64,000 bases of DNA from Zootoca vivipara (GCF_963506605.1 NC_083287.1:34286001-34350000); one strand, 5' to 3'. Counted from the stretch's first letter, positions 2,609 to 60,800 are shown. Notes: generated by a model not told the origin, from the sequence alone. Numbers and translations: made by a program.

Positions 2609-4149
2609 CTGTAAAAACAATTAGCAATTCCAGTAACTACCTTCAAACCGCTATACAATGCAAGCAGCAATTATTTTTATTATAAAGTACTATAGCAAAT
2701 AGTAACTTAGAGGAAAACATCTATTCGCATCAGTGATTCCAGACAAATATGCTGTACTATAAAATAAAGCTAGAAATTTTAAAATGTGTTTTTCTTTAAA
2801 TGGGATTACATAAAGGAAGAAAAGGTGTTATCTTCTACTCAGTTATGAATACACACATTTCATTATTTAAAGAGAGATATCAGAGATATTGCAGCGTTAT
2901 AGACAAGGGTACAATTCCAAAGGGAGTTCCACTGGTGATATAGGCAAGGAATTAAGAACATTTGCACTATTCCTTTAAAGGTTTTAACATTCAGCTATTT
3001 CCACACACAATTTTGATTTCATCTGGTTTGTTATTTTAATGTTGATTTTTCTAGATTTGCTGTATTTTACTATTTTTTCAAATATTTATTGTAAGCCACT
3101 CTGATAAGTTTGAAGAGCTAAAAATCTTACAAATACTCAGTAGCCTGGTTCACACATGCTAAGCCAAATCAAAGTTTGTTCTTGGTGTAGAAGTCATGGT
3201 TAGTCTGGAGAGAACTAAACCATAGACCCTACTTTGGATAGCATGCTAAGCCAAACTATGGCTTAGCTCAGCACAGCAGAAAAACAACAAAACAACTAGG
3301 GAGCAGCCAAGTGGCTGTCATCTACTCCCTGGAAGCCTGCATGTTTGGGCTAAGCCATGGCTGTGTCAGGACAATGCAGATGGAGGATTTGGCTGAGGAT
3401 CTGGGCAAGGGCTCCAGCAGGATGTAGGGGACTCTGCCAGGAGTGGGGCAGTCTGTTAGTGAGGAGCCTGGGAAGGGGGGCTCCCTTAAGCTGCTCACTT
3501 GTCTCATCTGTCCCCATGATGAGACCCATGAGACCCACCTCCCTCTACAGGGCTGCCAGAACCTGTATCTGACACTCCCTCAGCGCTCACTGCACCACCC
3601 ACCTTGGCATCATCAGTAACTGTGCCTACCCAGATGGGGATATTTCACTAGGTCCAGCAGGAGCAAAAAGAGTAGGGAACCGAGGGTTCCACCTACTATA
3701 TGTAGTGTGATATTGCATAAACGTTTACTGCCCTATGATGAGCCCACCCCATTTCAGAAAGGGGTGTGTGATCAACAACTAAAGTTTTGACAGTTCAGAG
3801 TACCAGCCTTGCAGCTGCATTTAAAATTAGTCATGTGTGTTGCCTGAAGTGCCAGCAATGAGTATATGTACTGCAGTAATCAAAACATTAAAGCCTTTGG
3901 AAATAATCATTCAAGTCCTTGTTCTTCAGCAACTGGGAGACCAGAGACGAGCCATCCTTTACTTCTTTTCACTAAATGCACCAAGTTGCTGCCTTGAAAA
4001 GCAGGCTATAAATATGAAAAACTAAAACTAAACTACAGTACCGTATAAGCCACCTATAGAGAGGTACATTTGCTGAAATGTCATTCATATACTGCAATGC
4101 AGCATAAAGACACTATATAAAATCCAATTTGTGCCCTAGTGCTTTTGGA

Positions 4150-4720
4150 TCAGGCTCAACAGGACATGTCGAGCTATCTCATGCCTGCAAGACCACAGTT
4201 TCTTGATCAATTTGGGCCAAAAATCATCCCATGTAAGTGAGTCAGCTGATTCATCTGGGCACTTCTCTATAAACACCAAGTCAGCAACAGTTTATCTGAC
4301 CGTGGATAGGGTAATATTGGGGGAGTAGATGTTACACCCAGCTGTATTTCAGGAAATTAAGACTTGTTATGGCATAATCAAAGTGGACCCTCTGCATCAG
4401 ACATAAAATATCAGGTTGAGAGGTTCTTCACCAGGTTCCATTGTCTGATGGCAGAAGCAACAGATACACTAGCAGCTTTGTGGCCATCTGGTCTACTTTA
4501 TGCCTTCCCTCCAGTTCCGGTTATTCCTCGACTCCTACAGAAACTTTGGGAAGAAAGGGCTCTGCTAATTCTAATGGCACCATATTGGCCATGGATGTCA
4601 GACATTCTGGATCTGGCCATAACTTCCCCACGACATTTTTCTCCTCAGACTTCATCTTCACCTGAATCTAAGTTGGCTGCAGTTAACAGTTTGGTTTTTG
4701 AGAGGAATGAGCCTCTGACT
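4150..4720 (+). mobile_element. Degenerate DIRS1-like retrotransposon fragment
   Basis: ORF 4364..4789 contains W..GLLYAFPP..VIPRLLQKL...LILMAPYWP, typical of the methyltransferase-like domain of DIRS1 pol. Confidence 0.7.
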
Positions 4721-57800: not shown

Positions 57801-60800
57801 CCCCTTCACTATGGGATTGGAAAACAGCTGGACTTGTGCAGTGTAATGCTCCTGATAAATTAAACCAAAGAAGCTGCTAAGGTGATAACGGTGACTGAGT
57901 GGATATATCAAATTCAGCTCAACCTTCTCTCTCTCAAATGGACTTCGCATTCACGTTCAGCTAGAAAAAGCAAATCAGTTTCCAGGAGGAGAAGAGGGAA
58001 CAGCCAGAAAGGAGGGCAGCCTGAGACATTCATCCAGATATGAGCAAAAGGACATCAGTGGGGCTTTGCAACTGTTTTGAGGTCCTGAAAGTAAAGGGGC
58101 TGAGAAGTGTGGCTCTGATCGTGGTCTGTCATGGATGGGAAATAGGCCGAGCTGCACCAAACAACGAGCAAGAATGAGTTGGCCATGTGGTAGTGCTATC
58201 TTTAATAATAATCACTTAACCTTAATAATAATCACCGCATGGAAACGGTGTTTACCTTCCCGCTGTAGCAGTACCTATTTATCTACTTGCACTTTGACGT
58301 GCTTTCGAACTGCTAGGTTGGCAGGAGCAGGGACCGAGCAACGGGAGCTCACCCCGTCGCGGGGATTTGAACCGCTGACCTGCTGATCGGCAAGCTCTAG
58401 ACTCAGTGGTTTAGACCACAGCGCCACCCGCGTCTTAGGGAGGAATCATTTTTGAAGTTTTCATATAGTAAATGTGTGTTTCTGATTTTTCTATATATAA
58501 TTTTTTTTAATGTGGCAACTTTGGATATAAAACCGGGAGAATATAAATAATTCACTAAGGAACAGAAGCCAGAAAAGCTTCCTCAGGGCTCTGACTTCCC
58601 AGCTGCATCTGAGAAAAAGAAACAGAGAATTCTTGCTTCAGCTCATTCTTTGGTTCTGTCTAGGTCAGCCTTCGACAACTTTGTCCGCTCTGTGTCTTTT
58701 GTACTGAAATTTCCATGAGTCCCAGCTAGTATCAACAGGCTGGCCTAGGTCTAACCTTGCCCCCTACTACTGCTGACTAGGCAAACTCCCCGCCCTGCTT
58801 TCTTCCCTTCGAGATTGGCTTGACATATTGAAAGGGGAAATGGCAAATGGCCTTTGGGCTACTTTACAAAATAAGAAAGTATCACACTTACAGTTAAGAG
58901 TAGTTATGCTCCTAATGTGGGATGGAATACTGGGGCAGACAAGTCACAAAAGTTCCCAGAGTGTCCACATGGAGGACCACGTGGAGGAACACCTGACCAG
59001 GTCAGTTTCCTGTTCCTCCACACATGCAAATGAGATGGGAAAGGTGGCAGATAAATTCACTGGCCAGTAGCCATTTCCCTCTCTTGGACCACACACTTCA
59101 GAGAAGCAACATCTTAGCGTTAGAGTCTTTCTCGGCTTCCTGCCAAGAGAGAGACCAAACGGAGCCTTACTTTACTAAGTAGTCTCCACATGTATATAAA
59201 TGTAACTTTTCTAAGCAAGCCTGCCTTTCTGAGATTATGCTGTTAACTCAGGATGTCATGTGAGTAAATTCTATCTTATTTTAAGACTATTGTGCTGTGT
59301 ATTTCTTTTAAGAGGGATAAAGGGGATTTGCCAGGAAGTATAATATTGTTGTTATACTCTCGAAGCTACGAACATGAGTTTGACCAGACTGCGGGAGGCA
59401 GTGGAAGACAGGAGTGCCTGGCCTGCTATGGTCCATAGGGTCACGAAGAGTTGGACTTGACTAAACGACTAAACAACAACAACATAATATTGTTGTAGAG
59501 GTTTTAACAAACCTAAACGCTCATGTTCTGCTGCGCACAAAAGGGGAATGTCACTCTGCTGATATTGGAAGCTTGATAACACAAGCTTGGATAGGATCTA
59601 TCTAATACCGTAATATATCCTAATCCACATCCCTAACATTCCCACACCTAAGGCAGGTGCTCATCAGTTGCCCTGAACAACTGCAGTTCATTAGGTACAT
59701 TTTTGGGGCATGTCTAAGGATGCACATTTGCTTAGAAGTTTAATTGAACTTGATTAAATGAATGTCTGGTTAAAATGGAAGACTGGACTGCATGCTCCAT
59801 TTATTTCATGGGAATGACATATCCAACACCTCCAAAACTAAGCTCATATTCATTGCAGTAGCCAACAAAACCTGTTATTTGGTTGTATATAAGTATTTAA
59901 TCAACTTACAGTATCTTGAAATAAAAGAGGTGTCCCTGTTCTAAAGTCCTGCAATCTACAGTCTGAAAGTGTGCACAAACTGTTCTCTTTTATACCATAC
60001 TGGGGTGTGAAAAGCTGTTTCTTAATATAGCTAACTGCTTATTTTGTTAGGGCAGTGAGTCTTTTTGAATTATATTGGTTTTCCTGGAAGCCTCTCTCCA
60101 AGGAGAATATCTAGCCAAAATGCTAATAGCTTGCTATTGAAGTCTATTCATATCAAACTCGTAAGAGAGTTTATTGGGAGATGGAGCAGTCATTCCCTTA
60201 ATTAAGCTCTTAAGGAAGAAACAGCATCTTTAGCACTGATTTAATGAGAAGATGGAACTAGAGTGTGCATTCTGTTAATAAAGCCCTTGAAGAAAACAAG
60301 AAGTTTCATTTGCACTGATTTAATGAAAAAGTGGCACCTAGGGGTGTATTTAGTCTCATATTTTGGTCTTTGTTACTCACCTTAATTTCTCTTTCTCATC
60401 TGTAGTCCTTTAGAAAATGTAACTTTTTTAAAAAAATGATCTAACTCTGTTAATTACATTGAAGAATGACCTGTCCAAGGTTCTTGCTTTGCAATCTTGA
60501 ATACAGCGTCTTAAAACTTTATTTCAATTATTTACAGTAAATGCAAAGACTGAACTAGAGGACCATAATAACTCAAGTAAATGATGCAGAACAACACTGA
60601 GGCTCAAAGGGCTTTTTAAAGGAGGCATTTAACCCAACTTTTTTTTTTTTAAAAAAAAAAACAAACCACAGTATTACTTAGTTACGCACACCACTGTTTA
60701 TTTAGTACCTACTTGATAATGAATCAGTTCCTGTAATGAGAAGTATGTATTTATTTTCTTACATATTATATATATATATCCTTTCTATCATCATGGAACT

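Follow-up and report, generated by a model that had tools for sequence, protein, structure and literature searches.

The DNA studied here is a stretch of 64,000 nucleotides from the lizard Zootoca vivipara (GCF_963506605.1 NC_083287.1:34286001-34350000), called the window below, in which short words made of two TA dinucleotides enclosing CCG, CCGG or CAG are unusually frequent. Our main finding is that these motifs are insertions of 5 to 6 bases that turn one ancestral TA into two, and that they are most likely (with a probability of about 0.93) heritable excision footprints of TA-targeting DNA transposons of the pogo type. The insertions themselves are observed, the CCG and CAG ends of resident elements equal the bases inserted at the same repeat positions, and the genome holds young Passer elements with an open transposase frame. 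The original prediction, made from the window alone, attributed the motifs to Tc1/mariner elements; the scars of TA-targeting cut-and-paste transposition stand, but the donors appear to be of pogo type (Passer with a DD35D triad for CCG, Tigger-like for CAG) and not Tc1/mariner proper.

Motif enrichment in the window and in the genome

All motifs that had been predicted are present at their positions. The word TACCGGTA occurs seven times in the window, where 0.13 to 0.56 copies are expected under Markov models of orders 1 to 4, and accounts for 7 of the window's 40 CCGG. Under the same models 1.1 to 2.2 copies of TACCGTA/TACGGTA are expected and 10 are found; to the earlier list, which was right, we add 4039 and 33319, the tails of the two copies of the compound motif TACAGTACCGTA. 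TACAGTA/TACTGTA is found 31 times for 8 to 11.5 expected, so that roughly one-third of these sites are background. Ranked by enrichment among TA-N4-TA or TA-N3-TA words, TACCGGTA and TACCGTA each come first and TACAGTA second. Three window motifs enter these counts a second time, since 54681-58200 recurs with 3 mismatches at 58233-61752 as a 3.5-kb tandem duplication, which is either very recent or an assembly artefact.

The excess extends to the whole genome (1.44 Gb searched), in which TACCGGTA occurs 32,985 times, about 8-fold above the Markov background. In 80 evenly spaced 10-kb loci (800 kb) compared with a Markov-3 expectation, we counted 13 TACCGGTA for 1.7 expected (7.8x), 41 TACCGTA for 13.2 (3.1x) and 189 TACAGTA for 86.8 (2.2x). 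In the same sample TACAGGTA/TACCTGTA is enriched 2.0x (TACAGGTA, 37 versus 18.3) and TACTGGTA/TACCAGTA 1.8x (TACTGGTA, 32 versus 17.8); TACATGTA is not clearly enriched (14 versus 11.1), TACCATA is not enriched (63 versus 65.3), and six control TA-N4-TA words, CpG-bearing or palindromic, range from 0 to 3.2x, none with p<0.03. Extrapolated from these 800 kb, the summed excess of the five enriched classes amounts to about 300,000 sites genome-wide. Two comparisons were set aside: a reversed-pattern control as frequent as TACCGGTA (32,630) is unfair, as it lacks both CpG and TA, and an excess of TACCTA (271 versus 188) was not counted as evidence since the word belongs to the short interspersed nuclear element (SINE) used below.

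The predicted enrichment over a Markov background is thus real, but it is a property of the genome and not of the window. Genome-wide, TACCGGTA averages 1.47 per 64 kb, and the window nevertheless exceeds this density about fivefold (P ~0.0008, with no correction for its having been chosen because of this very word); the 200 kb flanking it hold nine sites, about twice the mean density. Across 100 loci the density of CCG motifs is correlated neither with TA count nor with GC content or CpG ratio, which leaves the local excess unexplained.

The motifs are insertions at TA

The TACAGTA at 14578 lies in a dispersed repeat of which a 97% identical copy within the window has a plain TA, and its five additional bases are absent in 11 of 14 spanning homologs; likewise, the TACCGTA at 56054 corresponds to a plain TA, five bases fewer, in a 93% identical paralog (L123). 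Among 430 motif sites over 1.15 Mb, 36 had a spanning homolog (none was found for 394), and 15 of the 36 were clean insertions, compared with 3 of 206 for control TA-N3/N4-TA words (p 1e-11). Positions 47600-51300 of the window were also aligned with contigs from four relatives (the species X4, X5, X8 and X11). Among the indels listed in these 3.7 kb, three of the eight motifs appear as exact 5-base gaps, at 51132 (four of four species), 50805 (three of four) and 50646 (two of four). Alignment to related species and to repeats, as the original prediction had proposed, therefore bears out the insertion of five bases at TA for several motifs. The features of the window are as follows (window coordinates; no strand is assigned).

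6033..6040: TACCGGTA, likely a 4-base footprint of a CCG-ended element, of a class seen as an insertion elsewhere
17674..17681: TACCGGTA, likely a footprint, by motif count
19696..19703: TACCGGTA, likely a footprint, by motif count
27292..27299: TACCGGTA, likely a footprint, by motif count
29930..29937: TACCGGTA, likely a footprint, by motif count
48100..48107: TACCGGTA, likely a footprint; gap totals of 6, 6 and 8 in related species fit a loss of 6 or of 5+1 bases
49623..49630: TACCGGTA, likely a footprint; spanning contigs are short by 7 (X4), 6 (X11) and 1 (X8) letters in total
14578..14584: TACAGTA, 5-base insertion at a TA within a dispersed repeat copy
50646..50652: TACGGTA, 5-base insertion; gap in X4 and X5
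50805..50811: TACTGTA, 5-base insertion; gap in X4, X8 and X11
51132..51138: TACCGTA, 5-base insertion; gap in all four related species
56054..56060, with a duplicate at 59606: TACCGTA, 5-base insertion relative to paralog L123
4034..4045: compound TACAGTACCGTA, likely a chain of two footprints with a TA in common
33314..33325: compound TACAGTACCGTA, from the motif scan and chain counts
26781..26787: TACGGTA, likely a footprint, by motif count
32525..32531: TACCGTA, likely a footprint, with no terminal inverted repeat (TIR) after it
39625..39643: two TACGGTA 12 bases apart, which may be one footprint and a local duplication
32589..33015: 427-bp CAG-ended miniature inverted-repeat transposable element (MITE) flanked by TA on both sides; over 122 bases from its start it aligns with the left end of element L168

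Insertion spectrum in a high-copy SINE

Ten consecutive bases of a high-copy SINE were screened for all insertions of 3 to 10 bases, without naming any motif. The first such probe returned 355 inserted copies against 16,456 unmodified ones, and insertions occupy about 0.5% of these TAs. Its first 100 insertions comprise CAG or CTG in 32 copies (one with both), CCG in 11, CGG in 3, CCGG in 12, CpG decay products in 11 (CCA/TGG 5, CTGG/CCAG 6), other 4-base insertions in 8 (CAGG/CCTG 4, CATG 1), 3-base variants in 5, 2-base insertions in 5 and other insertions in 13. For the second probe, the first 100 of 166 comprise 31 CCG, 20 CGG, 20 CCGG, 2 CAG/CTG, 3 decay products, 7 other footprint-like insertions, 6 of two bases and 11 others. 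Exact footprints or their one-step CpG decays thus make up 69 of the 100 insertions tallied in the first probe and 76 of the 100 in the second; those listed as others, 13 and 11, are mostly short tandem duplications. The CCG, CGG and CCGG insertions bring CpGs into a CpG-poor genome, in agreement with the earlier suggestion that scars add young CpGs.

Target preference is strong: one SINE TA carries almost only scars of the CCG family (71 versus 2), and others carry both families. At one SINE TA, CCG also outnumbers CGG 8 to 1, a repair bias that is unexplained.

Probable donor elements

No CCG-ended donor had been recognised in the window, but a de novo search of the genome for TA-flanked elements with such termini found them. 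Their 13-base CCGTG end occurs 11,466 times (control, 242), and full-length copies measure 2.5-3.5 kb, with TIRs differing by 0 to 1 mismatch in 20 bases and TA on both sides. The predicted transposase combines DDE_1 and HTH_Tnp_Tc5 with DD35D spacing: PF03184 and PF03221 exceed the cut-off in L191, L193 and L196, the open reading frames (ORFs) span 431 and 455 aa from ATG, and the catalytic triad of L191, assigned by motif, is D174, D278 and D314 (spacing 35). The Brinker motif (PF09607) matches only in the CCGTA-ended L180 and in none of the three CCGTG proteins (E<=0.001). Judged by DD35D, DDE_1 plus HTH, a single ORF of 400-500 aa, short TIRs, TA duplication and a length of 1.6-4.0 kb, the CCGTG-ended elements fit the Passer (pogo) family as defined in PMC9976928.

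Open-frame CCGTG copies are 99.97-100% identical. L193 and L195 differ by one mismatch in 3,473 bases; L201 and L207, on different chromosomes, show none in 3,081 aligned bases and are therefore likely to be active now. At least three CCGTG-ended Passer subfamilies have open transposase frames (L201, L207, L191, L193, L195, L196). Older CCGTA-ended elements are also present; this end type, an early candidate for the main donor, was rejected as too rare and too old (229 ends, at least 2 TIR mismatches in 24). Non-autonomous CCG-ended elements (L093:1839-3236, L143, L146) have long GC-rich, partly tandem interiors, some with internal TACCGGTA, and could seed CpG-island-like DNA.

An element that matches the CAG motifs is present in the window itself. 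The MITE at 32589-33015 has the TA|CAG...CTG|TA ends that had been described, with TIRs 24/25 identical, and CAG ends are abundant (61 in 800 kb). Its first 122 bases are shared with L168, a broken element of 2,723 bp with a DDE_1 transposase between CAG-ended TIRs, a TA duplication, two stops and a hand-counted DD36D, which, from its motifs, we take to be Tigger-like. In the bases that they contain, the CAG scars agree with Tigger-like elements, this MITE among them; CAG-ended Tc1 elements may contribute too, as the search for donor transposases covered PF03184 only. Squamate Tigger elements range from 2.3 to 4.0 kb in Table 1 of PMC9219625.

Probable scars, resident copies and re-use of sites

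Resident elements and scars sit at the same SINE TAs across paralogous copies. At SINE TA 1, read from one side, the first 100 of 121 copies hold 50 resident CAG and 4 resident CCG elements, 19 exact CAG scars with 3 variants and 4 CAGG, 16 exact CCG/CCGG scars with 2 variants, and 2 others. The first 100 of 211 copies at SINE TA 2 hold 6 resident CCG elements, scars of the types CCG (42), CCGG (40), CCGGG (1) and CAG (2), and 9 others. CCG scars therefore exceed CCG residents by at least 99 to 10, a lower bound because one-sided patterns are blind to CTG, CGG and decayed scars; in the CAG family scars and residents are about equal in number when CTG is included. The genome-level estimate for CCG, about 100,000 scars for 5,700-9,000 elements, agrees with this excess. 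It could reflect either a long period of activity in which elements hopped repeatedly or selection acting against residents that are long and GC-rich. Heavy cut-and-paste activity of CAG- and CCG-ended families, as originally proposed, is supported by the TA insertions and the matching donor ends.

Scarred sites are also re-used: 13 chained scars, nine of them of mixed type, were found in 1.0 Mb for 1.7 expected, which upholds the predicted re-use of TA sites.

Proposed mechanism and alternative explanations

In the mechanism that we propose, the transposase would cut three bases inside each end, so that the flanks keep 3' overhangs of CCG or CAG; these would be sealed by end joining in germ-line cells or in the early embryo. 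Complete overlap would yield CCG/CGG or CAG/CTG. CCG overhangs would have a second option, the perfect pairing of only the two final bases (CG:CG), which gives CCGG after fill-in and which CAG overhangs lack; the footprints would then decay at CpG and serve again as targets. In a table of possible pairings, CCG overhangs form two Watson-Crick pairs in both complete and 2-base overlap, and CAG overhangs only in complete overlap. Such pairing is the most likely origin of TACCGGTA, and would explain why it is common when 4-base products of the CAG family are rare: 4-base to 3-base products number 18 to 19 for CCG and 5 to 33 for CAG (p 0.001). Products that need three bases of one end (CCGGG, CCCGG, CAGG, CCTG) do occur: two of the 12 longer insertions are CCGGG or CCCGG, SINE TA 2 adds one more case, and CAGG/CCTG exceeds CATG (4 versus 1) in probe 1; among words, TACAGGTA is above expectation and TACATGTA barely so. 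CCGCGG was seen in none of the 12 longer insertions. The bases flanking CAG motifs match those flanking resident CAG elements.

Several points weigh against this reading. Around CCG motifs, the agreement with the flanks of resident CCG elements is poorer than it is for CAG. In the paralog comparison, 13 of the 36 sites showed no indel (six being copies in the window duplication and two element ends) and 8 another indel. None of the seven window TACCGGTA is individually shown to be an insertion, and within the 3.7 kb compared between species no locus is seen as an empty site, with the element and with the footprint, only the first and the last of these states being represented. The SINE tallies were made by hand and cover the first 100 entries as ordered along the genome. 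Finally, 2-base footprints exist at a few per cent (CG 4-5, CC 3 plus 4 ambiguous, CA/TG 3 of 31), so that cutting or trimming is not uniform.

These 2-base footprints would fit a 2-base stagger, and 10.1101/659086 describes cuts of this type in Tc1, Tc3 and mariner. It is accordingly conceivable, though rather unlikely, that the motifs are footprints of a CCG family cutting two bases inside, TACCGGTA being the fill-in product of CC overhangs without overlap; on paper such overhangs can yield CCGG, CCG and CGG. They have, however, no register with a Watson-Crick pair and cannot make CCGGG or CCCGG (three cases), and GG is seen in 0 of 31 four-base insertions. The matching CAG product, CATG, occurs once against 33 (p 8e-6 relative to the CCG ratio), although the families could differ.

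Much less probable is that the host deleted elements between their termini, or that insertions were aborted, with no excision by the transposase. The lack of a three-state locus and the unusually high ratio of scars to residents are compatible with such remnants, but deletions would vary in length, whereas the inserted bases number sharply three or four between two TAs, and the CAG/CTG pair is a known excision product (10.1101/659086).

Slippage, CpG decay or chance composition is less probable still. The background share of TACAGTA/TACTGTA and the tandem duplications among the other SINE insertions point that way, and decay of CCG/CGG can give CTG/CAG; yet the inserted bases are not copies of their flanks and add CpG to a CpG-poor genome, and the comparisons with repeat copies, paralogs, related species and both SINE probes contradict it. 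Decay as the source of the CAG/CTG excess was rejected because TACCATA, which would arise by the same decay, shows no enrichment.

That TACCGGTA, a CpG-centred palindrome denser in the window than on average, is a selected regulatory or methylation-related element is barely credible, as it lies within SINE copies at arbitrary TAs beside non-palindromic sister forms, decays at CpG (into TACTGGTA) and belongs to a motif class that varies between species.

Comparison with known systems

Transposon excision footprints and the end joining that makes them are textbook knowledge. The permanent exit of DNA transposons from the vertebrate germ line is hard to measure, and excision is thought to be mostly masked by homologous repair. 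What differs here from known footprints is their scale, their heritability and the palindromic 4-base scar.

The closest parallel is Sleeping Beauty, for which 10.1101/659086 gives TACAGTA/TACTGTA as canonical footprints, with the same 7-base scars, 3-base overhang model, end-joining repair and rare 2-base variants. Those scars are laboratory events of a Tc1 element and the eight footprints listed there include no 4-base product, whereas ours are natural, heritable, estimated at hundreds of thousands and assigned to pogo-type donors, and CCGG is common. Footprints of 0-4 bp in HeLa cells are reported for Passer in PMC9976928, whose elements share with ours the DD35D triad, a 431-aa transposase, short TIRs starting with CCG and a TA duplication. 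At least four lacertid rows of its table have CCGTA ends, unlike the young CCGTG family found here, whose ends are like PasserB rows from planarian, leech, nematode and crocodile. The resemblance to the planarian, leech and crocodile rows raises the possibility of horizontal transfer.

Natural excisions have similarly been recognised through genome comparison in Asian and African rice (PMC4423477), where insertions exceed excisions (2.6-2.8 to 1 for Mariner) and excision is mostly accompanied by deletions or filler; in our genome, scars of stereotyped form exceed CCG residents about 10 to 1, by a measure not identical to that in rice. As described in PMC13148408, end joining also makes empty sites of Tc1 in C. 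elegans, but in its germ line homologous repair restores the element, in contrast to end-joined scars inherited en masse. Our literature search, which covered few subscription papers, found no report of natural footprints at genome scale in a vertebrate.

We lean, by a narrow margin, towards the view that in the lizard lineage end joining and not homologous repair routinely closes these breaks in the germ line, and that pogo elements, still active and through many rounds of turnover, wrote about 300,000 stereotyped insertions of 5 to 6 bases by our estimate, at about one TA in 200 in the SINE. If so, excision scars would rank among the main origins of small insertions and of new CpGs, and would form a fossil record in which the excisions of each family can be counted. 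Counted beside residents, they yield ratios of excision to residence of about 10:1 or more for CCG and about 1:1 for CAG at the probed SINE site. Their spectrum would be a natural read-out of the pogo 3-base cut, a prediction of cut position that the identical open-frame copies make testable. A frame-preserving 6-base scar could add two residues to a protein. Of practical relevance, such indels of 5 to 6 bases arise repeatedly and independently at the same TA and add young CpGs.

Other features of the window

The region around 30000-31200 is GC-rich and resembles a CpG-island promoter. For a host gene, the 103 of 128 long frames scanned gave two sub-threshold Pfam matches, the better without a PDB match. 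A SINE copy at 50098-50450, with an ACCTTT-like repeat end and a 13-base duplication, is absent in all four related species; such an ending is that of the Sauria SINE type (PMC13295347). Short hairpin elements with arms of 64-66 bases and a 20-base loop lie at 50934-51085 and 53998-54145, and are present in high copy number in related species.

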